This document shows positions 17,101-42,042 of a DNA stretch of 64,000 nucleotides, in pieces. The notes beneath the pieces are model-generated. The model did not search any database. It was not told the DNA's origin and was given only the letters and a program-made list of their open reading frames with translations. Position 1 is the first letter of the stretch; every line of letters starts with the position of its first letter. The position numbers and the translations under genes were made by a program. Origin of the DNA: Blasia pusilla (lineage: Eukaryota); contig CM114271.1 in NCBI GenBank assembly GCA_050084515.1, positions 31,682,001 to 31,746,000 on the forward strand, given 5' to 3'.

Positions 17101-17255
17101 TATTTCTATAGAAGGTCTGATGGTTCAAGTCCAAAATGGAGTTATTAATTTTTGAGGTTTTTCTCACAACTCCATTTTGCTTGAAACTTGGCAAAAGTAG
17201 AACATGCACCTTGGGGACCATGTTGGCGAAATTTTAGCTCAAGATGGGAAAGTTG
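14130..17255. repeat. ~180-bp tandem satellite array, left block (~17 monomers)
   Basis: The motif ccatttttcttgaaactt...cagctcaagatgggaaagttggacaagatgaaaaatgaaaaaacc...ggttcgggtccaaaaagg recurs at 14141, 14321, 14476 (short unit), 14656, 14839, 15018 and onward. Confidence 0.95.
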
Positions 17256-21369: not shown

Positions 21370-23105
21370 AGTTCGATGAGATGAAAAATGAAGAAACCTT
21401 ATTTTGATAGAAGGTCTTATGGTTCGGGTCCAAAAGGACTTGCCACTTTTTGAGCTTGTGGTCTCAACTCCATTTTTCTTGAAACCTATCAAGATTGCTA
21501 GATGCACCTTAAAGACCATTTGGGCCAATTTCAGCTCAAGATGGGAAAGTTAAACAAGATGCAAAATGAGAATTTTGATAGAAGATCTGATGGTTTGGGT
21601 CCAAAAAGGACTTACCAATTTTTGAGCTTGTGGTCCTAACTCCATTTTTCTTGACACTTGGAAAGAGTGCTAGATGCACCTTGGAGACCATGTGGGCAAA
21701 ATATAAGCTCAACAGAGAAAATTTGGACACGATGAAAAATGAAAAGACCTTCCTTTCATTCAAGCTTTAATGGTTTAGGTCCAAAAAGGAGTTATTAATT
21801 TTTGAGGTTCTGCTCGTAACTCCATTTTGCTTGAAACTTGGCAAGAGTGGAACATGCATCTTGGGGATTATGTTTTCCAAAGTTCAGCTCAACATGGGAA
21901 AGTTGGACAAGATAAGAAATGAAAATACGTCCTTTTCATTCAAGGTTTAATGGTTCAGGTCCAAAAAGGAGTTATCTCTTTTTGAGGTTTTACTCACAAC
22001 TCCATTTTCCTTGAAACTTGGCAATAGTGGAACATGTACCTTGGGGAACATGTGGGCCATATTTTAGCTCAAGATGGAAAGGTAAGACAAGATGAAAAGT
22101 AAAAAAACCTTATTTTTATTCAAGGTTTAGGGTTCAGTCCAAAAAAGATTTATTAATTTGTGAGGTTCTGCTCACAACTCAAATTTTTGTGAAACTTGGC
22201 AAGAGTGTAACATGAACTTTGGGAACCATCTTGGCCAAATTTCAGCTCAAGATGGGAGTGTTGGACAAGATGAAAAATGAAAAAATATTTTTTTGGTAGA
22301 AGGTGAATGGTTCGGGTCCAAAAATAAGTTATTAATTTGTGAGGTTTTGCGCACAATTCCATTCTTCTTGCAACTTGGCAAGAGTGGAATGTGGATCTTG
22401 GGGACCATGTTGGCCAAATTTTAGCTTAAGATGGGAAATTTTGACAAGATGAAAAATGAAAAAATCTTATTTTGATAAAAGGTCTAATAGTTCGGGTCCA
22501 AAAAGGACTTGCCAATTTTTGAACTTGTTGTTCCAACTCCATTTTTTTGGAAACTTGTCAAGAGTGTTAGATGAACCTTGAAGACCATGTGGGCCACATT
22601 TCAGCTAAAGATGGAAAATTTGGACAATATGAAAAATGAAAAAAAATTATTTTGATAGAAGGTCTTATGGTTCGGGTCCAAAAGGACTTGCCAATTTTTG
22701 AGCTTGTGGTCCCCCATTCCATTTTTCTTGAAACTTGGCAAGACTTCTTGATGCATCTTGGAAACCATGTGGGCCAAATTTCAGCTCAATATGAGAAATT
22801 TGGACAAGATGAAAAATGAAAAAAACCTTATTTCTACAAAAGGTCTGATGGTTCAGGTCCAAAAAGGACTTAACGAGTTTTGATCTTGTGGTCCCAACTC
22901 CACTTTGCTTGAAACTTGGAAAGAGTGCTAGATGCACCTTGGAGACCATGTGGGCCAAATGTCAGCTCAAGATGGAAAAGTTAAAGATCTTTTTTTCCAT
23001 TCAAGGTTTACGGCTTCGGGTCCAGAAGGTCAATTTTTAAGTTGTGGTCAAAACTTCATTTGGTTTGAGACTTTGCAAGAGTGATAGATGTAGCTTGGGG
23101 ACCAT
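21370..23105. repeat. ~180-bp tandem satellite array, right block (~9-10 monomers)
   Basis: Same monomer as 14130-17255; it resumes in register after the copia TSD. Confidence 0.93.
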
Positions 23106-23343
23106 TTGCACTATTCTATAATTAAAATCTTAGAAGAGTTATTTCATTTCACTCTAGTAAGTAATTACACTCTTCAATTCAAATGTAAATGATATCCTAG
23201 TCCCGTAAGTAAATTTGAACCAAATCTATTCCTTCTTCATTAAAATTCAATTTCCCTTTCCATTACATATGAATCAAGCCACAAATAATTTTTTTATCTA
23301 ACATTCAATCTTTTAAAAATTTAGTAAGATTTATATTCACCTA

Positions 23344-23550
23344 CTAGTGAGGTGTCCGTGTTGTGCACGTGTAGATTTCCAAATCTCCATCATTAGCTCT
23401 CCTCAACCATAAACGACCAGAAAAACAGAAAAAGGCATACTTTAGGGTGGCACAAAGAAAAAATAATTCAAACTGGATTGGCACGTGTCGAATGGGGAGC
23501 AGGTACGAATGAGAAGGGGTTTGCTAATAATAATATATATTATAGTAGTA
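23344..23550 (-). mobile_element. Probable non-autonomous mini-Helitron
   Basis: The minus-strand 3' end reads CGTG-cacaa-CACG-gacacctca-CTAG|T (short hairpin plus CTAG). The AT-rich minus-strand 5' region 'ctactataatatatattatt' resembles Helitron starts. The 5' boundary is approximate. Confidence 0.5.
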
Positions 23551-24467
23551 AATAAATAATGAATTAATAAGTATTTTTTTTTTCTATTCCACCCAAATCC
23601 CTTTTGAATTCTACCCCATGCAATATTGGTCACTAAACATAATTCATACATGATTTTCCTTTACAATTCAATTCAAATATATATTTTCCTTTATTAATTT
23701 TGGAAAAAAATTCATCCCTTTTCCAATCCCCATCTTTCAATAAATAAAAGAAAGTCATTTATTTTGATGAGTTAGTAATTTTTGAGGAGTTTGTAATAAA
23801 TAAAATATTTAAATTTATATCAAACAAACCTTTCAATTATCGTATCTTCCACCTTTTATCCAAGGACTTATAACCCAAGAGAAAAATTTCATCCATTTCA
23901 TGAACTCGCTTCATGGACAACATTCGTGACTGACTCACATTCACAAGTCTCCTCAATGGAATATTTTGAATTTTTTTGAGAATATATTTACAAAAAATAA
24001 GGAGTACCCCACAAAACAGCTGGATTGAGAGGAACCTAATACTTATGTACATTACAAAGATATAAATATGAACTCATTCTATCTAATTTCATTCATCATT
24101 AGAGATATGTAATACCGGTGAAGACGTCTCACAAACTCTTCCTCCTCTTCCCTTAGCTCTAGTCATGCACATCCCACCTCCATGAGGAATAGTCCTTTCC
24201 AACTCAACATCGACTTCACCATCATTTTTTCTTATGTTGGCTCCGTCGGAAACATCTACCACTCTCTCTCAAAGAATCCAAAGAGTTCCTCCTGCATTCG
24301 ACGAGGGTAATAGTATGTTCGAGGATATCCGCCTTCAATCTTTTGAGGAATATCTTGCCATAAGAAAGGTGGCAAGGTCAATTCAAGTCTCCTCAAAACA
24401 AGGTCATCTACCAATAGATTTTGATGATGGTTTAGAACAAGTTGTCGAGTTGTGTTGAGGGCGTCTC

Positions 24468-24797
24468 CAAGGTTGCATGTGGAGAAAGTTTGTGTCTATG
24501 GACATGTCCATGTCTATGGACTCATGTCCGTCCTATGGAAGGACTTGTCCATATGGGCCCCACCTTTCCCTTCTTTCTCCTTCCCCTTACTTGCCTTTGT
24601 GTTCCATACTCCCCCGTTTCTTCATCCCTCCACCTCCACTCCCTCCTTCCTTATTGCTCCACTTATCCTTGCCTTGTCTTCCATCAAGGGCTATAAGTGT
24701 AGGTCCCACCTCTTGGAACCTATGTCCGTGGACATTTCCGGACTTGCCCATCCATGTCCGTCCTAAGGAAGGACTTGTCCGTTTCTGTGCAACCATG
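24468..24797. mobile_element. hAT-type MITE, copy 2 (opposite orientation to copy 1)
   Basis: Termini CAAGGTTGCA...TGCAACCATG; 8-bp TSD ggcgtctc/ggcatctc (7/8); internal homology to 7428-7717. Confidence 0.85.
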
Positions 24798-25079
24798 GGC
24801 ATCTCAAACTTTCTATGGATTCAACCCCTGAGCAAAGAAGAAGTTTTCCACCTCTCAATTTTGGAGATCAATGGCTATTCCGTGGATGAGCTCTCCTCAA
24901 TTATACATGTCAATGAAGCAGACTTGTTACGCTCGTATTGCCTGATCAATTCTCTGTTGACGAGGGATTTTTGCTTGAACCACCCTGTCTATGTTCACTT
25001 CAAGGTTATAGTTTGATCGGTGGCTACGATTTCCCGAACTAAAAGTGAAATTTTCCTGCTCTTGGGTTTGCTTGCGATA

Positions 25080-26080
25080 TGTGGGTGGTGCATTGCCATC
25101 AAGAGCGTGGAAAGATATATCGAAAAGGTGATAGTCTTTTTGACCAAGCTTGTCTACAAGCTGGACACTTGTGAGATAGTAGCATGGCCTTTTGAAGACA
25201 ATATGGATGCCAATAACAAGCTTTACATGTACCTCTCACATAGCAACCTTCTACAACAATGGGGTTGAAGCAAATAATGAATTTGGGAAATTTTTTTGGC
25301 GTGAGAGCCCCTCCTTCACTTACTACGATTTCCTTTATCCAATCCAGAAGATCTTGCATTTGTGTGCTTGGATTAAGAGGTATTGGTGGCAACATCATAG
25401 AGGCACAGTTTGCAGTGTTTGGATATATGACACTGTCCCATGTTGCGCGTAGAGCTGGAGGCCACAACTACTCGATACGTTGAAATAAGATCATTTCAAC
25501 CTCCTTCATGAGACAAACCTCAAGTAGAGTTGTCTCGGGGTGAGTTCTCCCACGTTACCCCTTGCTCTCCATCGCAACAGTTCATCCATCTCTTGTTATC
25601 GTCTTGTCATGATGTTCTCGTATGCTCTCCTCCACTGCTCCGTATGGTCAACCATTAGAGCTCTTTGCCTTCTATGGAGGTCATCACTAACAATAGATTC
25701 ATTCAAAAGTCTCTCATCTCTCTCTTCAATCTGATGTGCACCTCATATAGTTGTTCATACTTCCCCTTCAAAACGTTGTATTCCGCGACTAAATCAACAT
25801 TGCGTTGGGAATTTGTCATTAAAATCTACAACTATGATAGATGAGACATTACCTTGCTATTATCCGGAGCATTCTCCCCACAAAAGGTTTGGGGAGGAGC
25901 ACCGTTATGTACATGGAAATCAGAACTCTCCTTGGGCTCATCAAAGCTCGTACTACGACCTACATAGAGGTCATTCAAACCATCTCGTCTATCCTTTTCC
26001 CCCATCTGCACTCGCACTTCATTGATCTCCACTCTTTTCTTTTATATCTTCTTCAACACGATGATTTATTTTTTGACCAT
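25080..26080 (-). pseudogene. Coiled-coil plus RING-finger protein gene (degenerate), probable transposon cargo
   Basis: ORF 25099-25467 contains ICFNPIVVEGCYVRGTCKACYWHPYCLQKAMLLSHKCPACRQAW, a RING-like Cys/His spacing with the first Cys lost. Charged helical sequence upstream is interrupted by stops. Confidence 0.6.
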
Positions 26081-27937
26081 GAAAGGAAGATAGTATGGCT
26101 CTAAGGCTCCTTGAAAATGAGGCGCAGTAAGAGGATAGGAAGAGAGGAAGAGAGGAGAGAGGAAGAAAGGAGAGAGGAGAGAGGATACTACCTTCAACCC
26201 AAAGAGATACAATTTTATGAAGAGAGCTTCCTGTGGTTTGAAGAGAGGAAATTTTTTTAGTGAATATTTTTGCAATTCTTCTGACTCTGCTCAGTCCCTT
26301 CCACATATTTTTTTTCCCTCTTCTCCATTGTGGCAACCCGTTTGAATCCGACAGGTTGCAAGTTGCAAATTTCCAAAAAAAACTTAACAATCATTGGAAT
26401 CAATAATGTGGAAGAAATCACTTTTTCCATCCAAGGTTTCGAACAAATCTATCATTTCGAATAGAGTTCAAGCTCACGATGAACATTTTGGAAATTTAAA
26501 GTACAATGTAAGATCTCATTTTGCATCCTCAAAGTGTTTTGTTTAAAATACTTCGCACTTCTTTGAGGGACAAAATTGGTTGGTGGATTCCTACTCCTAC
26601 CTCCGAATCTCTTAAAACTACAATCAATACATAGTACATGTGCTAACAAGGGAAATATCTTTTCCCAATTGTCTCTCTTTGGACAAAGTCATCATAGGAA
26701 CATGCGGGAAAGCAACAGATGTGTACCACATACACCCCTGTCACACTTGAATTCATAGTGTTGTTCTTGACCCAATACATCCTTCCTATTCCATTGCCAC
26801 TATGAACGTCTTTTGTGGTGATGATTTCCATGTTTGCCTCTCGAGCTTATGCGATTCGCTTTGCTCTCTACACCGTTGGCCTACACATTCTGGTTCTCTT
26901 CACCCCATTTCTTGACTCGAACACAAATAGTGGATTGAGATCATCCACCTTCTGTGGGTACATGTCAATATCAATCTTGGGTTGAATCCAAAATGCAAAG
27001 GTCTCTGTAATGCAAACATGCTCCAAACTCCCTCCGTCTACGAGTCTGAAACCGGCACTTGTAAGATTGTCCACTTCCTTCTGAGTGCAATTGGTACCTA
27101 CAGCAATGGGCCAAATCGTGGAGATATTCCCTGGAGCTCCAATGGCGGCCGGATAAGACTTTCGGAAAGCGCACGATTCATTGGGCAGAAGAAGTACTTC
27201 AATTGATCCGGGGTTGCTTCGAGAAATATGCCACCGCTTGAGGTTGCAATCCACCTCAATGACCAGAATCCCATACTGTTGAACTACCCTCGAGACTGTA
27301 TGGTGGGAAGTTCCAGCAACAGAGGGGTTTTGAAATAAAACATTCATTGCTTTTGCAAAAGATAGGTCAACTCGAATTTGGAAGCAGTCCGGTGTCTCCG
27401 AATACCTGAGCGGGGTAATTTCCTCATCCAAATCAATCATCGGATTCTTTCCTCGATGTGAGGCTTGACTTGCTTGAAGTCAATGTACTTATCAGGTCTC
27501 CAAGAGTCTCGTTCAGACTACTCTACAACCATCTATATGGGACGTCTTGAAACACGCCCACAAATGTCCCCACCAATGTGGACGTATTTCTCGAGAGGAG
27601 ATCCAGCTACGCACCAATTGAAAGCTTCCACATACAATTTCTCATCCCTAGATCTAACAGCAGCTAACATAGAGCTCGTAAATCGAAGGGTCCTTTCCCT
27701 TGGTTACGCCCTAAGTGAGGAAGATGTGGGAGGCTACTGATTGTAGCATTGCTCTTGCCTGGTCTTGTTGGCATGCCTTAACAAGAGATATTTTTTGAGA
27801 TGTATGTGATGATCTCCAAGAGAAATGGACACTCTCGGCTCCGCTTGTGTTGGGAAAGAGGGCGTTTTCGTGAATGTTAAGTCCCTACACACGAAAACTT
27901 ATCAATTGATGGAGGGAACGCCCAAGTGATGAATGCT

Positions 27938-28394
27938 TGCAACCCGTCGAGATCCGATGGGTTGCAAGATTAATTTATCTTGCTTTAAGTAACCTACAAC
28001 CCGTCGAAATCCGACGAGTTATACAATGAACTTTTTTCAGAAAAAATTTGCAACCCGTCAAATTCTAACGGTTTCTAAGATGATTTTTTTTCGCAAAAAA
28101 GTAACTTGCAACGCGTCGCATTGCGACGGGTTGCATGATGAATTTTTTTTGCAAAAAAATGACTTGCAAACCATCGGATTTTGACGGGTTGCATGATCAC
28201 CTTTTCTTTAAAAAAATTGCAACCCGTCGCATTCCGACGTTACTTGATGAACTTTTTTCAAAAAAAATTTGCAACCCCTTGTATTCTGACAGGTTGCATT
28301 GCAAACTTTGTTTGCAAAAGAGACGTAACCTGTCGATTCCGACGAGTTGCTTTACCCACCTAATTTGCAACCCGTACGATTTTGACGGGTTGCA
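27938..28394. repeat. Cluster 1 of the 29-bp palindrome (~9 copies, period mostly ~52-58 bp) inside the transposase intron
   Basis: Copies start at 27938, 27995, 28049, 28107, 28165, 28218, 28270, ~28324 and 28366. Spacers are A/T-rich and related to each other. Confidence 0.9.
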
Positions 28395-28647
28395 ACCTCA
28401 AACTTGGACCATCTACTTGGAAAAAATGGAGAAAAATCACTTGTCGCATAAAGTTTCCCCATTGCCTCATACGGACGGTCCACCAACTGAGCCACGAACA
28501 CAACGAACACATGCTTTCTCCACCACACATGAAGCTCTTCTTGGCACTCCATGGCTTGTTTCAAGGTTTTGCTATCCTTGCAATGTTGAAGTAGAGCTAC
28601 ATGCTCTGTTCTCTTAGTCTCCTTCATGCAGGATTTTGTGTAGCGAG

Positions 28648-31600
28648 TGTGAGAAAACAGAAAGTGACGAAATCACTGAAATCTTTACAAAACTTAGAGA
28701 TACAAAGTGGCCTAGTCTGTCCGTGCGCTCACAGAAGAGCTTAGATGGAATCTGAACATGGAGATAACTCGACATACGAGAATGCGCTACCGCTACGACT
28801 CCCGACTATTTCACTACTCGGGAAACTAGGGTTTTTACCTAATTTTCTTCGTTTCTATTAATAGAAAATTTTTGCACATACACCACGACAAAACCTAGGG
28901 TTAGATAATCCTAGTAACGCTACTCCTGAAACCACCTACGTCATATTACTATGACTCCTTCAACGTCTAAGTCGGAACCATCAATCTAAGCTTCTCCTTA
29001 TACAAGGGGGGATCAGATTAATGGTGCTCAGAGAAGTGGATGTTGAGAATCCAACACCTCCCCTCAATATCCACTCTCATGTGCACTACTATCTTGGACC
29101 TATGCCAGACTTGAGGATGTCGGTGAAGCGATCTCGCTCAAAGCGTCGTGAGATGTCTGCACGGTTATCCTCTGTTGGACAATAGACTAACTTCAAAACC
29201 TCTCTTTCGATCAATTCACGAATAAAATGATACTGGATCTCTATGTGCTTCGTACGAGCATGAAACACAGGATTATGTGCAATGGCAATGCAACTCTGAT
29301 TGTCACACCATATTACAATAGCACTCTCTGGTGCTTCTCCTATGTCCTCCAATAGCCATCTGAACCATACTGCTTCACAAGACGCATAACAAGCCGCCTT
29401 GTACTCTGCCTCGGTAGAAGAAAGATCCACTATAAGTTGCTTCTTGTTGACCCATGATACCACACCTGATCCTACCAAGAAGCAATAACCTGAAATTGAT
29501 CTTCGAGAATCTGAATCTCTTGCCCAATCCGAGTCACAAAAACCTGTCATTTCCGTCCCTGCTCCATAGGTGATGCCGTACTCGATAGTGCCTTTGATGT
29601 ACTTCAACACACATATCCCTGCCTTCTAATGGTTCTCATCAGGCTTAGTTGAGAACCTACTCCCACCGCGAAGCTAATGTTTGCTCTAGTCTTACACAAA
29701 AATATCAAACTGCCTACAGGCTTTCTGTAGAACTTTTCATCTACCAATGGTGAAACATCCTCCATCGAGAGTTTCAACTCTACCTCCATTGGGGAGATCA
29801 CTTCCTTACACTCAATCATCCCGAATGCCTTCAAGATTTCTTTAGCATACTTTTGTTGAGAGAGAAAAATAGAATGTGACTGTTTCCAAATCTCCAGCCC
29901 TATAAAGTAGTGCAAAAGACCTAAATCTGATATTTCAAACTCAGATTTCAACACTCCCTTCATTTCCTCTATTTTCTTACTGTGGTTTCCTGTGATGATA
30001 AGATCATCCACATACAAGACTATCAACATATACATCCCATCTTCGCAAAACACATACAAATTTTCTTCTGACGGACTCTTGATGAGACCCTTCTCTTGGA
30101 AGAATGTATCTATTCCTTGATACCATACCCTTGGGGCTTGCTTCAACCCATACAATGCTTGATGAAGTAAACACACTTTCTCTTCTGATCCGGGTATCTC
30201 AAAACCAGGTGGTTGAGATACATACACCTCCTCCTTCAGACTCCCGTTCAGAAAGGAAGACTTCACATTGTATTGGTATACAAGCCAACGTCTTGTTCGT
30301 GCAACCGCTAGAACAATTCGAATGGTTGTCATACTTGCAGTAGGAGCAAAAGTCTCATAGTAGTCAAAACCTTCGATTTTTTAGCATCCTTGTGCAACCA
30401 ACTACGCTTTGAATTTATCCAATGTACCATCCGACTTGTACTTGGTCTTGTACACCCACTTGGTGCGTATTATCTTCCTGTCCTTTGGCTTCTCAACCAA
30501 AGTCCAAGTTTCATTTTTGTGAATAGCGTCCATCTCTATCTGCATGGCCTCTCTCCATTGAGGATGAGCAAGGGTCTCATCCAAGCATGATGGATCTTCC
30601 ACCTTCAAGACCTCTATCATCAAGGCCATGTTGACGAGATATGCGGAAGCTCTATTTTGCTCCTCTAGTCTCTTGGATCTCCTTGGATGTGTAACAACTT
30701 CATCAGTTGCTGGTGGATCCTTACCATCCAAGAGCTGCTTTATCCACTTAGGGTATGACGACGGTAGTGGAAGAGCAGGTTGCTCTTTATAATCATCACC
30801 AAATTCTTCTTCTTGATGATCTAGTGTAAACATTGGTGGTGTGCTTTAGTGGGTTATCTCTTCGTTTGATGATAATGTGGACGGACCTCTGATTTCCGCC
30901 AATTGACGAGGCAATTCTTGGAACATCACATCACGACTCACAAGCATCTTCTTTGCCTCAGGATACCAAAGGCGATAAGCTTTAGACTCATCACTGTATC
31001 CCATAAAGATGCACTTACTGCTCTTGGACTCACTACAAAGCACTCACTACCAAAAGTCCTGAAATGTTGGACTAATGGTACCTTACTTGAGTATGATTGA
31101 TGAGGAGTCATGCCTTGCACTGACTTGGTAGCACTCCTATTTAGAATGTAAACGGAAGTAGTAACATCTTCAGCCCAAAATCCTTGTGTCAAACCTTTTT
31201 CTTTAATCATACATCTTGCCATCTCCACCATTGTACAGTTTCGACACTCAACAACTCCATTTTGTTGTGGTGTATGTGTCGTGGTTAACTGTTGCTTGAT
31301 TCCATGATCCCCTAAATATTTTTTGAATTCTATTGATAAGAATTCTCCTCCTTGATCGGTGCGAAGCTTTTGTACCTTCTTTCCTGTCTCATTCTCAACC
31401 AGCTTGTGCCATACTTTAAATTTTCCAAAAGCACTTGCCTTATCACGATCACATAATATTGCTACTAAAATCAAATTTTGCTTCAACTCTAGTACGTACA
31501 GTACATCAGTTAACTTCTTTTCATCTTCTTTTTGTGAGACTAAAGAAATTGTGCCTTTCCCTTCTACAGGGCACTTTGCATTATTCCCAACAGTAACAAC

Positions 31601-33126
31601 GATGGGCTCTGAGAGGTGTGAAGGAGCTATACCAATCCTTATGATTGGTCATATGCCTAGATGCTCCACTATCGAGCACCATGCATCTTCACTCTTTGAC
31701 TTAGTGGAATTTTCTGCCTATGTGCAAAACTCTTCAATTGCTACCCAAACATCTACTTCATGTTCTTCTAGTTCTCCAGAATTTCTAGACTCCTTCTTAG
31801 GTCTTAAACAACCGTTCTTCTCATCCTGACTCCTCTTTCTACAATCTTTGATAAGATGACCTAGCTTACCACAATAAAAGCATTTGAAGGTTTTCCTTGG
31901 AAATTTCTTCTTCATATTTGAACTATAATCCTGATTTTTAACTCTCTATACATTGGCAGTAAATGTTGCATCACTTCCCTCTCTTGCTTTGAAGCACATT
32001 TCCTCTTCTACCAACATTGCACTAAATTGTTCAAAAGTAAGCGGTGTGGGTCTTACTTGAGTATTCAATGCAGTGACCAAACTATCATACCTTGGAGGCA
32101 AAATCCTTATGCACCAACGTGCCAAATCTTCACTGGACTTTGAAATTCCCACGGATGCCATATGATCTTGAAGATTTTTTATCCTTGTCAAAAATTGCTC
32201 CACGCTTTCGCCTTCTGAAAATTTCTCAGACGTAAGCTGATTCTCGAGATTTTGAATCCAAGTCTCATTCCTCGTTTCATACTGATTCTTCAGAATTTTC
32301 CACGCCTCAGCAGCAGTGGCTATATGTTGAATGAGAGTCATGACAGAATCAGTTACATTCGTGACAATTGCATATAGAGCATCAGCGTTTTTGCGTTTCC
32401 ATGCCATCAATACAACATGATCGATATTACCAGCTGAAGATGAACATGTAGAACTCAAAGTAGCTTGTGGATTCGAATCGACCCTTGTGGCCGTCTCCGA
32501 GATCTCAAATGATTCGAGGACAGTTCTCATTTTGAACTTCCACAATATATAGTTAGACCTATCTAACTTCCCTTCACCCAGCAAAGCAGGGCGAGCACGA
32601 ACTGGCGAAGAAGTATCCATCTCTAAAGATTTTGTGCAAACACACTAGATCGCTAGATACAAAATACTGGAAAACCTACTACTCTCATACCATGTGAGAA
32701 AATAGAAAGTGACGAAATCACTGAAATCTTTACAGAACTTAGAGATACAAAGTGGCCTAGTCCGTTCGTGCGCTCACAGAAGAGCTTCGATGGAACCTGA
32801 ACATGGAGATAACTCGACATACGAGAATGCGCTACCGCTGCAGCTCTTGACTATTTTACTACTCGGGAAACTAGGGTTTTTACCTATTTTTCTTCATTTC
32901 TATTAATAGAAAAATTAATAGAACTCTATATTAGATTAGGGTGCCCCACACCCTGATGCAATATAGGGTTAGATAATCCTAGTAACGCTACTCTTGAAAC
33001 CACCTACGTCATATTACTATGACTCCTTCAACGTCTAAGTCGGAACCATCAATCTAGGCTTCTCCTCATATAAGGGGGCCGGTCAGATTAATGGTGCTCA
33101 GAGAATTGGATGTTAAGAATCCAACA
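28648..33126 (-). mobile_element. Ty1/copia family A copy 3 (both LTRs present; internal deletion of the GAG-pre-integrase/integrase N-terminus)
   Basis: Perfect TSD GCGAG at 28643-28647 and 33127-33131. LTRs at 32693-33126 and 28648-29056; PBS 32681-32692; PPT 29057-29068. ORFs: gag 31946-32620, integrase 30938-31486, RT 29604-30332, RNase H 29089-29610. Confidence 0.96.
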
Positions 33127-34676
33127 GCGAGTCAGAGACTGTTGCCAATGGAAAGCATCCGATCTTTCCCTTTCCGGTTGAACTTCCCCCAAGAACACTT
33201 CCCTGATCGCAATCCATCCTAGTTGGGCATTGTCCGCCATGAAGCCATATATTTCAGGAGGAAGTCTTTTTTTTCCTTCACCACCTCCAGTAAGAGTAAC
33301 CAACACACCTTCAAGCTGCCAACATCGCTTTCATCTCACAAATAAAAATGGTTTTGAGACCCTTCTTCACATGATCGTAAACGTATGCACCCATGGTCAA
33401 CCATCCATTTAACACCCTGTAGCAAATATCAAAGCTAACCTAGCTCCCAAATATATCTTCTCCCTCCCTCATTCTGTCAATAAGATCGAGGATGCTAGAC
33501 AGGCCTGTAGTAGATATTTTGAAGACATAAGCTCTAGATCCCTCGTTTCCTTAGCCCATGAACTGCCATCTCTGAATGAATGGAAACTGTAAGTTGGCCT
33601 TGATCCTAGAAATAGCATCCATCTCCGAGGTCTTTCCATTAAGTATTCATATTTAACGCAGTAAATTCTTGAAGCTTTCAAGATCAACCAAGAATGCAAG
33701 ATTTTCCCACACTTGCTTCTCCTCAACTGCCATTGGCTAGGGATACCCAGCAGTTGTTCATAAATTTGTGATACAGTTGTCAATTCGATTACTCCTAGCT
33801 TTGATCCTGGAGAATTTTTGTACACCTTGGCCACTTTCTTTGCCACATCCTCCTTGATGTATCTCTTAATCGCACCCGTAACATGATGAGTGTGACACCC
33901 AACATGAATTTTTAGCCTTGTGTACTCAAACGTAGAACTGTAGTCTGGCACTATGAAAAAAATATAAGTCGGACACGCTCTAACACAAAAAGGGTAGGCT
34001 TGACACTTCAGACATCGATGGCCACCCAGCAGTATGGTCCTACCCACGGCGTAAGGAGTTTCTGCATTTTTGGGATGGAATTGGGAAGAATTCACAACTT
34101 TGTTCCTCTCAAGGATGGGGCATCCTGGACTTCTGTACTCTAAGGCTCCAACGCATTGGCAACGAGACACAATCCAAGGACCACCTGGGATTGAAGCGCT
34201 TGTCGGCTGGAGTCTGCACCATCGATTACAGTCCAATTTTTGGTCCACACCCTTCAAGCGACCTCCGTCTTTCTTTTGAGAAGGACCGACAAGTGGAGGC
34301 AGCTCAAAAATGCAGTCTCTAGCATACGTTGCTGGCAGCTCATCAAATCAGAGTGAGATAAAATGTTCTTCGACAATTGCATGAATGTCATGAGGTTGGG
34401 CTTGAATTATCTCTAATTGAGGAAGGCTTGCTAGATGACTGCCACATGTGAGCTTCACATAATTGTCCATTTGGGTGAGATCCAGAATGATTGCCAAGAT
34501 AGAGAATAAGAATGAGAATAAGAATGTTGAGTTTACTGTGAACACTGTCCATTTAAATTATGACAGAATATGTCTGACATATAGTTGGTAGTTAGGTTGA
34601 ACCATCGCCAGGTAACTGCACCTACGAGAAAGGAATATTCGGACATGCTGGATTCGGCAAGCTTCCTTGAACCCGG

Positions 34677-35410
34677 GGAGTTCCCCTTGAGTCGACATTC
34701 CAACCCGTCCGGCTTCCTGGAATGTCGACTCAAGGGGAACTCCAACCCGTCGCAGTCCAATGGGTTGGAAACTGTCAAAAGGGATGTCGACGGAACCAAC
34801 CCTAAACCCTAAACGCATGTCAATGAGTTGAATTGAGTTTGGATGGAACGGTACAACCCATCGGAGTCCGACCGATTGGAATATGAACGGCCTCAAAATG
34901 GCGCTCCCTTAGGCACTCAGTTAGGCAGCCTGGGTTCCGTGCAAGTCGTTGGAGTCTGACAGTTTACACGAATCAAGATGAATGGTCCTTGTGCAAGCCG
35001 TCGGAGTCTGACGGGTTGCAGGAAGTGGAAAAGATGAATGGCCCACGTGCAACCCGTCGGAGTCCGATGGGTTGCACAGGACCCAAGCTGGATGGACCTC
35101 GTGCAGTGTATTGATTTTGATTACGATTTGAAGGGCCGGGGACTGTCTGATTAAAAAAGGTAAAATGCACATCGCCTCCCTCAATTGCCCAGTTTACACC
35201 CTTCCATTGGGTTCTTTTTTCTCTCAGTGCAGTGCGAGGAGACCGGCGGGGGACTTTTTTTATCTGACAGTCCGTCGGGGTCCGTCCGGTTGTAGGAATT
35301 GAGCTGGATGAACCCCGTGCAACCTGTCAAAGTCCAACGGGCTGCTTGTCGGTTCGGCTCTACTGCCCAAGCGTTGCAGAATCAACCTTTCAGGCTCCGA
35401 TGGGTTGCAG
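34677..35410. repeat. Cluster 2 of the 29-bp palindrome in the divergent intergenic region, plus a perfect 26-bp inverted repeat (34677-34702 / 34718-34743)
   Basis: Copies at 34741, 34852, 34940, 34992 and 35048, with degenerate ones at ~35265-35410. Confidence 0.85.
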
Positions 35411-35757
35411 GCAGACCACACAGAACATGCACCGTAACGCTCCATCATCATATAACCGGTTCCCCGTCGTACACCAACGGTCGAATCCAACAGCTCTGAA
35501 AGTATATAAGGACCAATTTCGAGGCTTTTCACTTTTCCATTCTACACTTTTCCGCGTTTTTTCCAACTCCCCCGTTCACACGACTACTAAATCTGACTTT
35601 CCAGTTACTCAGACATTTAGATGGTTGGTCGTTGTCTTTTCATTTGGGGGCTACAACAGTTAGTGACGACGGTTTGAGTTGATCAATTCTTTTCAGAGGA
35701 AACCATGATTGAGGTCAAAACCCTTTGCGCAACGTTCGATTCTGGACTTATTTCAGG

Positions 35758-38112
35758 ATGAATAAAAAAAAAAGCCAAGCCAGCAAGGTCAGGAGCTTCT
35801 CGCCCAAGTCTGGCGGAACTCCGTCTTCTGTAACGCAGCGCGCCCGTATATGTAAAGCAAGAGAAAATCGAGCAGTGCGAGCGGAAACCAAAATGAGGAA
35901 GCATGAAATGTTGGCAAAACTATCTCTAGAGAAACTCGCGAAGCAAGAGGAGAAGCGAGAAGTGAAATTGCTTACGAATGCGGAGAAGGCCGAGAAGAAA
36001 CGCATGGTGGCAGAGATCAAGCACAAAAAGGCTAGACGTCGCCTTTCAGAAAGCTGAATTGGCAAAAGTCAAGAAGGAAAAGGCAATCACTATAGAAGAA
36101 GAACCCTCCCTACGACCCACCGAGAGTGTGGAAATGGAGGATGTGTCATCCATGAGGTCAAGTGGTCCAATGCACGAGACCAACACCGACGAGCTTCCCG
36201 AGACCAACAAGGAGGTTGTTAGAACCCCGAGTGTCGAGATCATGGAGATCTCAGAAGGAGAAGGAGAAGAATCTTCTGCATCTCAGAAGCCTGTTGAAGA
36301 ATTTGATCTCTTCAAAATTGAAGAGTTTCCAGTAGACTTGCTGGAGTAGGCTCCAGAGCAGCTTCGCTGAACTTGATACGGCCCAGTTTTTTAGCGGATA
36401 AGCATTGTTCTATAGTTCTCTCTGCATTGTATCAGTGCCAATCATTTGGAAAATTTGAATTCACAATGTGACATTCTTGCAAGTGGTGAAGCAAATGGCC
36501 TTGGTGGATGGCCCGAATGCCCCGAGGATGCCTCTTTTCTGACTCCAAACGATGGAATACGTCAGAGAAATCCAATCGGAGGAAGACATTGACAAGTTGA
36601 AGCGGTCTGTGGCAATAGCTTCATACGTTGATAGCTTCCCACCTTTCTATGTTCAACCGTATGATGAGCATGGAACCCAGGCTTTGGTAACGGAGGAAGA
36701 TCTGGAGAGTATCGATGCTTTTTTAAGGCTGAGGGACCTGGAGTTCCGGAAGGTAGTGGCAAGAACCCAGTACAAGTGGATACAAAACTGGTATTTTTTA
36801 ATTTGGGATGGCAACCTCCGATTCAAGGCGTGGTTGCAGTTTGCAACAGAGCGTCCAAACTCCCTTGAGGCTCACTTCTACGTGAGGGCGGTGGTCCTCC
36901 TTCCCTACCCGAATCACATGGCCATGGTGGAAATGGCCATGCACTCCATGAACACGTAAGTATCCTAAATCTTTTCTTCATGAAAATGAACCGTTTTTGA
37001 CTCATCGTACTCAAGAATCAAGTCATCATTAACAATAGCTGCAACCCGTCGAAAGGTGACGGGTTGCGGGAGGAAGAACTTGCTGGCGTATTTGCAATCC
37101 GTGGGACTCTAACGAATTCCTTTTGGCCGTCTATTGAGTTGCCTAGCAACTCGTTGGAGTCCGACGGGTTGCACAATCTCAAGTGTGGCCATCCCACTAG
37201 GACAGGGCCTACAACCCGTCAGAGTCCGACGGGTTGCAGTTTCAGGAGAGGGCGTGGTTTGAGTGGCCGATCATGCAACCCGTCGGACTCCGACGGGATG
37301 CATAATCTTTACAAAAGGAGTCTTGCTTGGGGCTGCTGTGCAACCAGTTGGTCTCCGACGGATTGCAAAGCCACGTAGACCCAGACCTTCTGCAAAGAAC
37401 ATTCAACCCGTTGGACTCCGACGGGTTGCAAAACCACTCAAACCAGGCCCTATCCTACCTCATATGCAACCCGTCGGACTCCGATGGGTTGCAAACCACT
37501 CGACCAGGGTTTTTCCAACCGCATATGCAACCCGTCGGAGTCTAACGGATTGCAGGGCTAGTCAAACTTGGCTATCTGCACTACAATTTGTGCAACTGGT
37601 CGGACTCTGACGGGTTGCAAGTGAAAAAACTATCGTCAAAATCCTGAACCCGGATGCAAACATAAAATCCGATGTGGGTGGCTTTGCAAACCGTCAGTTT
37701 CCGACGGATTGAATTTTTGAATTTACTGTACTCGAGGTGCTTTCCGATAGACTCTGACGAGGTGCAACCCAACCCCGGATGGTCCCGGATGCAAATCGTC
37801 AATTTCCAACAGATTGCAGGGAATAAGATTTTGGAGCAACCCATCGGACTCCAACGGGTTGCAAATAGTTGTCGTTTAGTTCATATGCTTCCAACCTGTC
37901 AGAAATCGACGAGTTGCTAGTTGTAAATTTTCTTACTTCTCATTGATGTTTGCAGCATTGTGTCCGAAGGGAATGTTACCCATCAGTGGATCCAGGAATG
38001 CGACCGAGTGAGGAAGGTTCTTACAACGCATCCGTCGCAATACAAAGGAATCCTCGGAATTCAAACATGGAATAGTATTGATTGGATGGGATATTTCAAG
38101 CATTTTGCATGA
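35758..38112 (+). pseudogene. Spliced gene with a basic/acidic low-complexity N-terminus and a ParB/sulfiredoxin-like domain; intron 36956-37955
   Basis: ORF 36552-36959 has YFLIWDGNLRFKAW, matching the ParB/Srx xxDGxHR signature with H>L. The donor ac|GTAAG at 36956 and acceptor TTTGCAG|c at 37955 give the in-frame continuation TIVSEGNVTHQWIQECDRVRKVLTTHPSQYKGILG. Upstream there is a frameshift and stops. Confidence 0.6.
37040..37918. repeat. Cluster 3: regularly interspaced 29-bp palindromic repeats (~15 copies; core of 8 copies with 32-36-nt spacers) inside the ParB-like gene intron
   Basis: Core repeats start at 37145, 37210, 37274, 37339, 37402, 37465, 37526 and 37591. The consensus TGCAACCCGTCGGA(C/G)TCCGACGGGTTGCA is a 14+1+14 palindrome. 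Confidence 0.93.
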
Positions 38113-38573
38113 AGAGTCAATAGTCCATAATCTCAACCACATCTTCTGAGAAGTTAAACCCTGAAGGGCACAAGAATCTATTGACACCATAGTCAGAGTC
38201 TTTATTAGAACCTTTCATTGAGATGAAATTAGTTTAGGCCCGGTCAAATTATCTGCCGATGTTCCTCCAACAATAATACCCCTTAGCCCGGCTTATTATA
38301 GAGCTGGCTTAGACAAGGAATGTGAAGAAAATTGGGCTCACATGGAGAGTGATGGAAGGATGTTTACAGTGGTCTTATGATGTCTACTTCTTTTTCCAAG
38401 GATGGAAAAAGAAGGTTAGTTTAGGCTCGAATGTGGTCCACTTGCTACTCTCTTCTAAAGATTTCATGAATTTGAATCAAACAAAATTTCAAAAATATCA
38501 AAAAGTTTTGAAGAGAGGAGGTGAATTCTGCCTTTTTCTTTAAAGAGAGACTCTCCTCTCTTCCTCTCCTCTC

Positions 38574-39153
38574 TTACTCTCTACTGCCAAAATACCAACC
38601 CCTTGACAATCCACCTTCGTGATAATTGCGTGATGACGCTCGTGGTGATGAAGCTTCCTCTCTTGCTCGTTTAAGGTGTGAGGGTGGGGTTATACTATCT
38701 TCTTCTCTTGGTCTCTTATCTCTTCTCAAAGACCCATCATCCACATCGCGATACTGAATCTCCATATCCTTCATCAACTCAGCCACTTTGAGTTGAACAA
38801 ATACCTTGCTCACTAACTTCCTCTTCTTCTTGGGGAGGTCTTCTTACTTTCGGACGCCATTGAACAAAGCCCAATCCTTTGTCCACAAATTCTCTTCCAC
38901 TTTCCTTGCAAATTCTCTAATCGCACGTCTCGACCACTTCAGCCGCGAATTTTTGAACTCTCCTTTCAAAACTTGTGGGTTAATGGGGCTATCCAAGTGC
39001 GCCTTCAATTCATCTTCCGTGATGAATTACGAGACGGTCTTCTTGTTCACCTTCGGAGGCATCTCTGGTGTTGATGTATCAAGGGGATCTTCCCTTCTTC
39101 CATCGTCCTCATTGTCGTGAGGGATACGGTATTCATGAGGTGGCAACTCCATC
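38574..39153 (-). pseudogene. Degenerate ORF of unknown function (about 190 codons, two in-frame stops)
   Basis: ORFs 39027-39227 and 38574-38813 lie in one frame, joined by FITEDELKAHLDSPINPQVLKGEFKNSRLKWSRRAIREFARKVEENLWTKDWALF. Confidence 0.35.
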
Positions 39154-39419
39154 TTGTCTTTTACCAAAATACAAAAAGAAAGATGATTTAGAAATGATTG
39201 TAATAATAGTGATACAATGACATACAATACATTTGTACATTAATCAAGCTTAATCATTTACAAAAATTCATACTAACACATTCATCTTTTTGAACCAAGT
39301 CTTTCATTTCTCATGGAAAATATCCAATCTTCAAACGGATTTACAATCACACTACCACTATTACTGGCCTTAACCCCAAATCTACATCGTCTACACCTAA
39401 TACTTTCGCATTTGCTCTA

Positions 39420-40600
39420 ATATATGCAATAAGAAACTCTAATCTTTTGCGATGAGAGGGATTCAGAGCTAATGCCTACTTTCGAATCATTTCCAAATAA
39501 GTAAATCTCACGTTCACTTCGGCATTCCCAACAAAGAGGTTGTATGTCACATAGTTCAAATTCTTCACAATCATTCCTAGGGCATAGATTTCAGTGGCCT
39601 TGCTAAAAGGGAGATTCTAAGGCCCTAATGTCAACTTGGATACTATATACCCAACATTATTTTTTTATTCATGCTGCCACATTCTATGAGAAGACTCTAA
39701 GATTTCATCAGCCCACATGGCATTTCCCCAATCTCCAACACCGATGTATGGGCTAGAGTTGGATCCAAAATGGATGGACACGTTCCTAGGATGGTCAGTA
39801 TGAAAAACCCCACGCTTGTGGACAGTCTCCGTGGTACCAAGATGGGCAACCACAAGCTGGATGGCATTTGATGCTATTGCGAGACATATCATCTTTTCCA
39901 ACTCTCCTAGATTACCCCCGCCGTTCTTCAAGTTATGGCATGCTTGCTACCAATTTTTGAGGTGCCCACTATTCCAATATGAAAAATTGGGAAACAGTGG
40001 ATCCTCGATCAACCTTCCCACCATGCGAAAAACACCGCGATGTAAAATACTCGCCAAAAAACTCCTCGTGCATCATCGATTTTCTAGATCATGATAGAGA
40101 TATTCCTTATACACCTTCATGCAATAGTATATTTCTTCCCTAAAGCCATGGGTTCCGTTTATTTTACAACGGTACAGAATTGCGTGTAAACCGGTTCCCT
40201 CGATATCGCTCGGGTCATATCCTACTGCTACAATCTTATCAGAAATCAATGTTATTGCAAATGGAACTATCAATGTCAGCCTTAGAGAAGTACAACGTCC
40301 CTTGAAAAGACGTTGAGCACTTCTTAACTCTTCACAGAATCTTTCTATGAGAGCCCACTCTACAACATTCTGCTTCTCATCCTTATATGTCTTAAGATCG
40401 ACATATGCTCTCTCCAGGTTAACACCTTTTTGGGCACAAATTTTAGTTAACCTATTAGCCTCTATGGCATCCACTTCCTAGTCAAATGCCTTGGCCACTC
40501 TATTGGACAATCTCTGCAATTCCAAGGTGTAGTCATGAAAACCATCCATACCCCTTGAAATGTAGGATCGTCTCTTATCTAAAGAAAGCTGGAAAAACCA
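39420..40600 (-). pseudogene. Protein-kinase-like gene, apparently intronless, degenerate
   Basis: Subdomains appear in order: Gly loop EGTGLHAILYRC, VAIK-like YCMKVYK, hinge-like FSYWNSGHL, catalytic loop VHKRGVFHTDHPRNVSIHF, DFG-equivalent IGVGDWG, and subdomain IX-like FSKATEIYALG. Confidence 0.7.
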
Positions 40601-41299
40601 ATCTAATCATGCCTCTCTTACGGCCACGTCGAAATCAATCCTCAAATTTGCTCTTTGCCTCTTGGCACCAAGGTTGGACTCGTTTTGGTTCTCTCCCGCT
40701 CTTGATGACCCAGCCCCACTAGACATTTCCCTCGGATGAAGAAGATAATAAAATCTTTAAAAAATATAAGGGAAGAAATGTAGGGGTTGAGATAAGTAAA
40801 TATCGAAAAGATAATGACGCGAGATGCTAAAACAATGGTTCAAAATCTACGGGCGCGTGAATGATGGAATGGCAGTCTAAGTATAGGGTTGGGCACTCAA
40901 AGGAAATAGGTAGATATGGGTGTGTTTAGATAAGGTTTCTTGATCACCTCCACATCCCCAATGTGCTAAGGAGAACCAATGAAACAAATCAAAATAGTCC
41001 GGTGCATAAATGAGAAATCTCACAATCACCAAACAAGTTTAGTGAAACAAGAGATTTCCACACTTACAAACACTCACCTAATGTGGAGTCAATTGGAGTT
41101 GCATTAGGATGCAACAAGGAGCGCAAATGTCCAAGTTGGTCCCAAAGAAAATCCAAGTACCCCCAAAAGGAACCCCACGGATTTTCCCAAAATTCCTAGT
41201 AACCTTAAAAGCCCTTAGCTATCAATGCACCATAAAAATTTGGAGTCTAATCTAAAATATCACTTTAAAACTGGATAAATAGGGGAAAATAGTGATAAT

Positions 41300-42042
41300 T
41301 AGGTAATTAATCCCTAAACCCCCCCTCCATATGTACATTTTTGGGGCCCCTTGTGGGCCTTTCCCTTATGGGTTTTACCCAAAAGGGAGAAAAGGGGAGG
41401 GAAGGGGAGTGCAGCCAAGTTCAAACTTGGCCCCAACCACTCCCAGATCGTCACGTATTCCCGCGGGGTTCGCGGGATGCGGGCTCCATACGGGCTCCAC
41501 GCGGGCGCCAACGATTGGGCCGTTGACGGTGAGACCAACGGTGGGCTTCCATGCCAGCTTCGGTAGGCGGTGCCATATGACGCAGGCTCAAGGCTGATTG
41601 GGCTAGGGCTAGGCCGGGAAGGTGGAGGCTCCAAGCGGGCAGGTGCGGGCTAGGGCGGGCAGGCGCGGGGTAGGGCGGGCAAGCGTGGGCTCAAGGCATT
41701 CAAGTGCGGGCTCCACGCAAGCAGGTGCGGGCTCAAGGCATTCAGGTGCCCGCTCCAGGCAGGCAGGCGCGGGCTCAAGGCTGATTGGGCGTGGGCTCTG
41801 GACAGGCAAGTGCAACCTCCAAGTGGGGAGACGCAGGCTCTAGGCGGGCAAGGCGCCGGCTTGAGGGCCCGCAAAAATTTGGTCCGTTGGACCAAAAGAT
41901 GTTGTGCCGAACCAAAATTTGCGGGCCACGCAATGGGTGCAGGCTTGAATGCCGGCCTCGGATACGCGGGCCTGTACGGACATGTCTGTCCATAAGATGG
42001 ACATAAGTCCGCGGACACGGACATTGTCAATGTGCAACCTTG
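41300..42042. mobile_element. Terminal region of a longer hAT-related element (GC-rich subterminal repeats plus TIR)
   Basis: Ends ggacataagtccgcggacacggacattgtcaatgTGCAACCTTG, matching the MITE end at 7670-7717. Repeated gcgggctcaagg units occupy 41580-41800. The partner end was not found. Confidence 0.6.

Follow-up and report, generated by a model that had tools for sequence, protein, structure and literature searches.

The segment between 24.1 and 40.7 kb of the window, i.e. of the 64-kb stretch of DNA analysed here, raises the question of whether a transposon has taken up a set of regulatory genes as cargo, or is confined to the part that carries its transposase. A preliminary description had proposed a single four-gene mobile unit of about 12 kb with transposase, RING, ParB-like and kinase genes, marked by one palindromic motif. 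Here we find that the zone marked by the palindrome (26334-37916) includes the transposase and the ParB-like gene but none of the other proposed genes. We consider that the core at ~26.3-38.1 kb (~7.3 kb without a nested copia element) is probably a dead autonomous-type transposon of a divergent Mutator/IS256-like family, in which the palindromes would act as self-marking sites.

The dead DDE transposase gene, split by copia, occupies 26541..34365 on the minus strand, as mapped by tblastn with homologues. Its pieces run from 34365->33751 through 33724->33332 (with the first catalytic D and in-frame stops), 33255->33127 (with the second D), 28666->28423 and 27881->27672 (with the catalytic E in 'GAESVH') to 27293->26541, which bears the SWIM-type motif. 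From the N to the C terminus, the protein had a Cys/His zinc-finger region, a D..D..E core of RNase-H-like type and a SWIM-type motif, and its C-terminal part, where the Cys/His residues of the SWIM-type motif lie, matched the Riccia protein P0015 (BLASTP, E 8e-31). A [D/C]xxH motif follows the second D, and the catalytic residues are spaced by ~66 and ~130 residues, as is typical of the Mutator/MULE superfamily. An intron (27884..28440, minus strand; GT at 28440, AG at 27884) lies within the catalytic domain, past the second D and ahead of the E. The GT falls right after the codons homologous to the point at which most homologues' gene models end, and the AG right before the exon aligning to residues 313-381 of homologue P0004. 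With 73 homologues, the intron and the SWIM-type motif, the spliced DDE/SWIM transposase proposed earlier for the minus strand was confirmed. The copy is inactive, bearing in-frame stops, frameshifts, the copia insertion and decayed palindromes.

The nested Ty1/copia-type LTR retrotransposon (28648..33126, minus strand), so labelled from its ORFs and from the earlier call, also stood up to analysis. Its LTRs (28648-29056 and 32693-33126) are 87% identical, its ends are TG..CA, and the 5-bp duplication GCGAG is present on both sides (28643-28647 and 33127-33131). When copia and one copy of the duplication were removed, a single HSP to homologue P0078 crossed the joint (residues 568-652, 48% identity, E 4e-27), thereby showing that the transposase frame is continuous over the empty copia site. 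This empty site was also present in contigs of other copies (joint 28641->33126), two in set X1 and two in set X3.

A phmmer search of 1.84 billion representatives gave the 73 transposase homologues at E<=1e-3, the best at 5e-18. Riccia sorocarpa accounted for 8 and Calypogeia fissa for 2 of the 20 whose organisms were looked up, and the relatives are proteins of liverworts and metagenomes that carry no annotation. None of 60 relatives matched any Pfam transposase family; the MULE, Transposase_mut, DBD_Tnp_Mut, FAR1 and SWIM models found no match in the window or in the 60 homologues, which sets the protein apart from known Mutator/IS256 and VANDAL transposases. The AF2 model of P0078 (pLDDT 79.5) had as its top Foldseek match the IS256-family transposase ISCth4 (6xgx, 6xg8, 6xgw; E 2e-4, probability 1.00), followed by Hermes and then by a GCM domain (probability 0.97), with VIA-align Z values of 7.9, 6.8 and 6.3, respectively. 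These scores for a predicted fold (Z <8) are middling; they are not clearly above those of retroviral integrase cores or hAT Hermes and cannot tell IS256/Mutator and hAT apart. The N-terminal zinc finger is of the WRKY/GCM1 type. Such a GCM/WRKY finger together with a C-terminal SWIM motif, here CxC..CxH, is described as MULE transposase architecture in PMC1702500. Together with the DDE core, the motif past the second D and the catalytic spacings, this supports a transposase of the Mutator-like DDE/SWIM type, with the difference that neither long terminal inverted repeats (TIRs) nor a 9-11-bp target-site duplication (TSD) was found here. The family has so far been seen only as unannotated genes of liverworts and plant-associated metagenome contigs. 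If our reading is true, the element is a dead member of a Mutator-like family of bryophyte type about which little is known, and it has a private palindrome.

The palindrome has the 29-bp consensus TGCAACCCGTCGGA-N-TCCGACGGGTTGCA and is perfect, with two 14-bp half-sites. Searching the 64-kb window with the core pattern (<=3 mismatches) revealed 26 copies, as compared to 0.00 expected from 100 shuffles, and the half-site (<=2 mismatches) occurred 39 times against 0.16 expected. All 26 palindromes lay within 26334-37916 and all 39 half-sites within 26347-37863; outside this zone neither was found anywhere in the 64 kb. The copies have sharp conservation edges, core positions being common to 18-26 of the 26 and flanking positions to 7-15, and the palindrome is retained across arrays that have different spacers. 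The motif is CpG-rich and shows C>T/G>A decay. Substitutions within decayed copies were compensatory in 4 cases and one-sided in 82, and therefore offer no argument for selection on the palindromic site. The observation that the motif occupies four non-coding places and is absent from the rest of the window was thus reproduced, which supports the palindrome as a specific cis-mark of the non-coding DNA of the element.

A single palindrome (26332..26360; core match at 26334) lies ~180 bp downstream of where the transposase homology ends. Array 1 (27938-28394, with 7 core matches at 27940-28392) holds 7-8 palindromes (TRF period 58, 6.6 copies) and nearly fills the transposase intron. Array 2 (34741..35409) is situated between the 5' region of the transposase and a divergent plus-strand gene, and contains 6 palindromes with <=3 mismatches (34743-35407) and 2 weaker copies. 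Array 3 (37040-37918), with 12 palindromes at this threshold (37042-37916) and 2 weaker ones at a TRF period of 63, sits in a putative intron of this gene (36956..37955, plus strand; GT at 36956-36957, AG at 37954-37955). Array 3 is shorter in other copies, where contigs join 36964/36966 to 37274.

The divergent accessory gene (35713..36959, plus strand), delimited from its ORFs, is the putative ParB-like gene of the preliminary description. Its N-terminal part (35713-36349), with one frameshift, is Lys/Glu-rich and then acidic, and the ORF at 36543-36956 (138 codons) is the one earlier called ParB-like. Past the AG of the putative intron the frame is open for 51 codons, and a putative last exon (37956..38112, plus strand) was placed there on the strength of this frame, whose phase follows from the GT..AG pair. 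Pfam, PDB sequence and homologue searches with the accessory gene were all without match, and no helix-turn-helix domain was identified in its protein. The ParB-like label could not be upheld, being without a Pfam ParB match; it goes back to a weak lead from the Atlas feature search, in which ParB_N clusters came at rank 10 with a score of 0.92. A single-sequence AF2 model reached a pLDDT of 40, with no usable fold, and a tblastn search of 72,556 plasmids yielded 6 matches at chance level, of which none fell on a ParB gene. The accessory gene has multiple copies in the genome, as variant bases were seen in 5 X1 contigs at 35940 and in 7 X3 contigs at 36711.

Palindromes were also present in relatives. 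The matching intron could be resolved in two related loci, L001 and L021. The nearest relative, L001, is 62% identical in the DDE piece, and its intron carries another palindrome, of 28 bp, in three copies; that of L021 has none. In the L028/L030/L076 family, ~10 palindrome units with a period of ~63 bp lie ~2 kb upstream of the transposase match, and L035 has 9 units upstream with a period of ~51 bp. The families of L028 and L035 are more distant than L001, and their arrays are candidate parts of their transposons.

The cargo hypothesis, in which one ~12-kb element (24.1-40.7 kb) mobilises transposase, RING, ParB-like, unknown and kinase-like genes as a regulatory toolkit, draws on five adjacent genes, four of them on the minus strand, and on the palindrome at 26334, which stands where the transposase has ended and the RING gene is still to come. 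Both flanks (24100-26331 and 37919-40700) contained 0 palindromes and 0 half-sites despite ample non-coding DNA. The downstream fragment (25099..26101, minus strand) has a weak RING-like Cys/His stretch at 25099-25467 and, in a different frame, a stretch that looks helical; a contig of X6 (guessed to be RNA) is colinear over 25143-26013 at ~88% identity. When all six frames, read through with X, were searched with Pfam, zf-RING_2 was the sole match, below its cut-off (E 9.5e-4, 19.8 bits against 27.3), which does not bear out the RING label; the ParB, kinase, MULE and SWIM models gave none. On the other side lie a candidate ORF (~39150->38574, minus strand) and the kinase-like pseudogene (~40724->39350, minus strand), which is one frame with several stops. 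The segment 38574..40724 had neither a Pfam nor a PDB match. The kinase label goes back to a weak Atlas lead, the ten best family-bearing matches being all of the protein-kinase clan (scores 0.88-0.91); like the ParB lead, it agrees with the label that the cargo hypothesis uses.

In the proposed co-occurrence check, tblastn with each piece detected transposase pieces in 18/80, 30/80 and 5/80 related loci, and the ParB-like, RING, coiled-coil, unknown-ORF and kinase-like pieces in 0/80, a weak test of accessory-gene linkage as these loci are distant (25-63% identity). Every segment is multi-copy, with several to tens of variant-bearing contigs each (low-coverage contigs of the same organism), as a cargo element would have it, but the depth of look-alike contigs varies up to ~250-fold along the stretch, with summed values of 142 for RING, 18-130 (X1) for ParB-like, ~170-230 for kinase-like and 566-4447 for transposase. 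No TIR or 9-11-bp TSD was found around the stretch, which speaks against one unit of this length; by the same token no nearer terminus was found, so that the flanks may conceivably be cargo. On balance the single ~12-kb unit is unlikely, and the RING segment and the ORF/kinase-like segment are most likely neighbouring repeats.

It is similarly improbable that the ParB-like gene belongs to a separate non-autonomous element of ~3.2 kb (34.74-37.92 kb), mobilised in trans by the adjoining transposase. Arrays 2 and 3 would then be subterminal end-recognition sites without a regulatory role, as in Ac or in En/Spm, where subterminal sites are bound by TnpA; repeat arrays of this kind are common near the ends of plant DNA transposons. 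The two arrays do bracket the plus-strand gene and have inverted matches to each other (e.g. 34992-35043 with 37187-37238, 52 nt, 75%), and the depth of the bracketed segment is far below that of the transposase. However, array 1 lies inside the catalytic-domain intron, an arrangement kept in L001, so that arrays are not only terminal, and the upstream arrays of L028 and L035 go with the transposase gene itself. In addition, the GT..AG around array 3 gives an open frame, and no TSD was seen at 34.74 or 37.92 kb. That the arrays are ordinary minisatellites or slippage-expanded hairpin DNA, placed by chance and of no role for the element, is very improbable: they are tandem (periods 58 and 63), vary in length between copies, lack a compensatory pattern and in array 1 match long-hairpin miRNA precursors of Rfam weakly (36.8 bits, far below the gathering score of 144), but within the 64 kb one 29-bp unit is confined to four separate places, where its spacers are unrelated, and palindrome arrays of their own occupy corresponding places in three other families of the transposase group.

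If the core is a dead Mutator-like transposon, its palindromes may have been densely spaced sites bound by a dimeric, element-encoded protein, either the zinc-finger domain of the transposase or the accessory protein being a candidate reader. They would not be cleavage termini; rather, like the VANDAL21 arrays on which VANC acts, they would tag 'self' copies to be transcriptionally activated or protected from silencing, and motif and binding protein would change together from family to family. The self-recognition or anti-silencing system suggested in the preliminary description is a reasonable reading of private palindrome arrays in like places of related families; a binding role is one that we infer from analogy.

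The closest known analogue is provided by the motif arrays bound by VANC21 in VANDAL21 (Hiun) of Arabidopsis. According to PMC5735166, VANC21 binds a short motif in tandem arrays of introns, intergenic and terminal non-coding DNA, the motif being 9 bp long and arrayed in one orientation, and motif and VANC protein co-evolve (on VANDAL elements with anti-silencing VANC, see also PMC10398659). Both systems are Mutator-like, with a transposase and accessory gene(s), and a short family-specific motif is tandemly repeated at high density in their introns and in upstream and intergenic DNA, while their exons are free of it. Related families have different motifs in either system, and array copy number varies between copies (from contigs here, and from the text on Fig. 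4 of PMC5735166). In contrast to VANDAL21, the motif here is a perfect palindrome of 29 bp, no relative of the accessory gene was detected, the host is bryophyte-like and not a flowering plant, and binding and anti-silencing are by analogy.

By analogy, En/Spm (CACTA, TnpA) and AtMu1 may also be compared, since they have many copies of a short element-specific site read by an element-encoded regulator of its own copies; the AtMu1 transposase is described as a sequence-specific activator of cognate copies in bioRxiv 10.64898/2026.08.24.746577. Their sites are concentrated at element ends, whereas here one array lies in the catalytic-domain intron. ParB-parS is a likeness in idea only, a gene with a faint ParB-N-like signal being bracketed by clusters of perfect palindromes; the absence of a ParB_N model or PDB match, of a confident model, of a helix-turn-helix and of plasmid matches on a ParB gene sets the two apart.

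In the downstream flank, the MITE of the preliminary description was recovered as a MITE-like short repeat (24507..24729) with an inverted copy at 7464-7696 (82% over 234 bp), and contig counts were high at 24523, within this repeat.

Searching the window for the 29-bp palindrome gave 26 matches to its core at up to 3 mismatches, as against 0.00 expected in 64 kb, and 39 matches to the half-site at up to 2 mismatches, as against 0.16 expected, and every match of either kind lay within 26334-37916. The consensus of the 26 copies, TGCAACCCGTCGGA-N-TCCGACGGGTTGCA, is a perfect 29-bp palindrome made of two 14-bp half-sites. The preliminary description had named four sites for this motif; repeat as well as pattern searches bore out the motif itself and found it to be far commoner. 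A single copy was located by pattern search at 26334, and the dense groups were array 1 (27.94-28.39 kb), array 2 (34.74-35.41 kb) and array 3 (37.04-37.92 kb). The edges of the motif were sharp, core positions being common to 18-26 of the 26 copies and flanking positions to 7-15. The tandem repeat period was 58 in array 1 and 63 in array 3, with unrelated spacers. G>A or C>T accounted for 64 of the 118 substitutions from the consensus, a bias that fits the decay of a CpG-rich methylated repeat. Compensatory changes numbered 4 and one-sided changes 82, and the palindromes of this dead copy therefore carry no sign of hairpin selection. Between 23 and 42 kb, Rfam returned only two far sub-threshold miRNA-precursor matches, both on array 1, and ARAGORN found no tRNA. 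The first copy of array 2 is adjoined, at 34677-34743, by another inverted repeat, which is perfect over 26 nt around a 15-nt loop and differs in sequence from the 29-bp palindrome.

The transposase gene was traced by tblastn of fuller homologues on the minus strand from 34365 to 26541. From its 5' start it has a Cys/His-rich N-terminal region and the first D, followed by the second D in 'FMADNA', by 'SDAFHW' and by the copia insertion (28648-33126), and then a stretch that ends with 'RQWGNFMRQ'. After an intron (GT 28440 to AG 27884) come an exon carrying 'GAESVH' and, last, a C-terminal region that includes a CxC..CxH SWIM-type motif. 'FMADNA', 'SDAFHW' and 'GAESVH' are all kept in the window. 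The C-terminal region aligned over 220 residues (E 8e-31) with the C-terminus of P0015, a homologous protein from Riccia that is named in UniRef as a SWIM-type domain protein. The CxC..CxH motif is visible in P0015 and is present in decayed form at about 26.6-26.7 kb of the window, although the Pfam SWIM model matched neither the window nor the homologues. Since P0015 also has the N-terminal domain, the two ends of the gene belong to one gene family. When the copia element and one copy of GCGAG were removed in silico, a single alignment to the homologue P0078 spanned the joint, which means that the copia element entered a gene still whole at that point. The copy is now dead, as in-frame stops and frameshifts testify. 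Pfam searches of six-frame read-throughs of the window, at E<=0.01, gave no match to MULE, Transposase_mut, DBD_Tnp_Mut or FAR1.

We used a 420-residue read-through of 33088-34347 in a phmmer search, which returned 73 relatives. Among the 20 relatives looked up, 8 were hypothetical proteins of the liverwort Riccia sorocarpa and 2 were from Calypogeia fissa, the remainder being Logan, ENA or JGI predictions; a word-indexed search of longer proteins with the N-terminal ORF of the transposase found nothing. Alignment of the family (A2) revealed invariant F571, M572, A576, W580, R598, H603 and S607 and a nearly invariant D574, with D or C three residues before H603, giving a [C/D]xxH motif after the second D. 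The family thus has the RNase-H-like core with D, D, E and [C/D]xxH that marks Mutator/MULE (IS256-like) transposases. Curated Pfam models of transposase families matched none of 10 homologues at E<=0.001, none of 4 at E<=1 and none of 60 at E<=0.1, none of 60 family members matched the Pfam transposase, FAR1 or SWIM models, and a profile of the family found no match among PDB sequences.

With 60 relatives included, AlphaFold modelled P0078 at a mean pLDDT of 79.5, and residues 455-680 of the model aligned to the cores of ISCth4, Hermes and integrase. The top match in Foldseek was ISCth4, a transposase of the IS256 family (E 2e-4 to 8e-4, probability 0.98-1.00), followed by Hermes of the hAT group (E 2e-2) and then by a GCM DNA-binding domain (probability 0.97). 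VIA-align gave Z values of 7.9 for ISCth4, 7.6 for retroviral integrase, 6.8 for Hermes and 6.3 for GCM, all below 8; a wide search by the same method returned mostly helical-bundle matches to residues 604-685 and was uninformative. The predicted fold thus shows an RNase-H-like DDE core together with a GCM/WRKY-like zinc finger, with fold values that do not by themselves settle the superfamily. When the N-terminal finger and the SWIM-type tail are weighed together with the [D/C]xxH motif and the catalytic-residue spacing, the family best fits the Mutator/IS256 group, as a branch that we call divergent because of the empty Pfam and PDB searches. The literature searched, which lies outside subscription journals and Repbase, held no description of such a transposase family. 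In the P0078 model, the N-terminus (residues 26-117) is predicted to fold as a small beta-grasp (ubiquitin-like) domain, matching DWNN, Raf-RBD and USP15 UBL domains with Z 5.6-7.5; no equivalent exon was found in the window.

Array 1 fills the transposase intron between the second D and E, and it is precisely at this exon border that the gene models of most homologues break off, in keeping with a conserved intron. The closest relative from metagenomes, L001, is 62% identical in the DDE piece; exon matches fix the position of its corresponding intron, which carries a different perfect palindrome of 28 bp in three copies. The intron could be resolved at one other locus only, L021, where it is short and without repeats. 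More distant families have palindromes of their own upstream of the transposase match, in about 10 tandem units with a period of about 63 bp in one (L028/L030/L076) and in 9 tandem units with a period of about 51 bp in another (L035), and array 2 of the window occupies the corresponding upstream position. Upstream of the L028 and L035 arrays, tblastx found no accessory gene common to the window or to each other. Array 3 sits between GT 36956 and AG 37955 of the divergent plus-strand gene, with 51 codons open after the AG. The main rival explanation of the palindromes is that they are subterminal end-recognition sites of two adjacent elements. In contigs from other genomic copies, the accessory exon runs on into a shorter array 3, and bridges also lead from array 3 to the exon that follows, so that the arrays and the accessory gene are linked elsewhere in the genome as well. 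The loci L028 and L076 were colinear throughout their overlap and defined no ends, and the points where blastn alignment of two further loci, L004 and L038, broke off were considered as family termini and found not to be true ends. A short palindrome of CATGGCA units (L004 6785-6815) stands near where these two 82%-identical copies cease to align, and it may be one more instance, in this group of transposases, of a palindrome close to an element end.

The window accordingly holds a dead DDE transposase gene and a private palindrome confined to the non-coding DNA of the element, and related families repeat the design with other palindromes. A parallel is offered by VANDAL21, where VANC binds a 9-bp motif with which it co-evolves, and the motif accrues as tandem repeats in the introns of VANB and VANC and upstream of the transposase gene (PMC5735166). 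Like the VANDAL motif, the palindrome is specific to its family, dense in tandem arrays of introns and intergenic DNA, and rare elsewhere. In addition, a recent preprint reports that activation in a sequence-specific manner is within the reach of a transposase itself, that of AtMu1 (bioRxiv 10.64898/2026.08.24.746577). On this analogy, the palindromes are putative binding sites for a dimeric protein encoded by the element, and probably serve both recognition and regulation of 'self' copies. A fuller reading, which we consider rather unlikely, is that of an undescribed group of bryophyte Mutator-related transposons, each family filling its promoter and introns with its own palindrome of about 30 bp, spaced about 50-90 bp; a dimeric element-encoded protein, here perhaps the faintly ParB-like orphan between two arrays, would read these sites and reactivate (anti-silence) copies of its own family only. 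Were it true, it would provide an independent, palindrome-based counterpart of the VANC system. If the palindromes are indeed read by an element-encoded protein, family-specific motif arrays of this kind would extend from the VANDALs of Arabidopsis to a distant plant lineage with a different type of site, which would suggest that Mutator-like elements repeatedly resort to self-recognition arrays. The reading would also bring in a transposase family absent from present domain libraries, as the 0 of 60 members matching Pfam indicates. The family is abundant in liverwort genomes and in moss-associated metagenome contigs. Palindrome arrays recur across this uncharacterised transposase family.

The preliminary description had further proposed a 12-kb unit with a cargo of four genes. 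Several results speak against such a unit. Neither the RING segment nor the segment of the unknown ORF and kinase-like gene contains a palindrome or a half-site. Among 80 related loci (726 kb), transposase pieces were present in 18, 30, 7 and 5 loci and each accessory piece in none, which is weak evidence because the relatives are distant. Summed contig depth along the stretch ranged from 18 to 4447, two bins being inflated by low-complexity AG runs. No TIR or TSD was found enclosing a large or a compact unit; when 23000-26600 was compared by blastn with the reverse strand of 34300-42000, the matches were confined to the palindrome and a low-complexity pair rich in AG. This inverted pair (26124-26214 / 38524-38587) was rejected as a TIR, being of low complexity and unconvincing in alignment, and loose contig ends at 38476-38483 were rejected as a boundary, as they resemble window sequence itself. 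Within the core marked by the motif lie the transposase and the divergent accessory gene. Thus, what had been observed was largely right, although the domain guesses are unproven; of the interpretation, the Mutator-like element carrying cis marks has support and the cargo of four genes has none. A cargo toolkit of kinase, ubiquitin ligase and ParB is unsupported and should not be carried forward as stated.

The ParB-like, kinase and RING labels are plausible guesses, no more. The accessory gene has a Lys/Glu-rich and acidic N-terminal part followed by a 138-codon ORF, for which the Atlas protein feature search placed a ParB_N cluster at rank 10 (score 0.92, 126 of 256 features). The ORF contains a DG-x-x-R stretch, which we take to be a ParB signature. 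Both leads favour the label, but Pfam gave no match at E<=10, phmmer against PDB gave one chance match (eS10, E 0.85) and word searches at 186-594 aa and 75-242 aa gave no homologue; tblastn against plasmids gave 6 chance-level matches, none on a ParB gene. A single-sequence AF2 model of the ORF was unusable (pLDDT 40). The RING segment did match zf-RING_2 over profile positions 5-44 of 44 (E 9.5e-4; E 8.7e-3 in a long read-through), but at 19.8 bits, below the Pfam cut-off of 27.3. A coiled-coil frame, considered as akin to the coiled-coil tail of the Riccia protein P0050, showed no similarity to it (BLASTP E 0.58). For the kinase-like gene, the ten best family-bearing Atlas matches of a 93-residue ORF (39665-39946) all belonged to the kinase clan (Kdo, RIO1, APH, Pkinase; 0.88-0.91), a lead without support from Pfam, where the 376-residue read-through had no match at E<=10, or from PDB, where phmmer listed no kinase among its matches.

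A contig of sequencing run X6 matches the kinase-like gene over 40103-40440 only; its loose ends measure 255 letters on either side, and it skips 102 bp (40192->40295). It may represent a transcribed or genomic paralogue elsewhere with only the conserved core in common. Depth of X6, guessed to be an RNA run, peaks for the whole 20-kb stretch at 35107-35779 (358.7). Long loose ends occur at 35107 and 35176, and some sequence plentiful in X6 is similar to about 70 nt that lie between array 2 and the accessory gene; Rfam and ARAGORN found nothing at 35107-35779. Nearly all of 22.5-42.4 kb is repeated in the genome, as judged from low-coverage contigs of the same organism, and the sequencing runs listed for the window, none of them RNA, were five DNA runs that shared only 0.06-0.13 of the words. 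Eukaryotic and repeat-rich, the window contains a 180-bp satellite as well as one copia family in three copies. The satellite forms blocks at 14100-17255 and 21369-23108, its units being 72-80% identical, and each block is bordered by copies of the copia family that is also nested in the transposase. Beyond the kinase-like gene, GC-rich 21-bp tandem repeats at 41.6-41.9 kb are followed at 42.04-42.43 kb by degenerate 21-bp repeats rich in TTAGGG-like units, together spanning 41580-42430.
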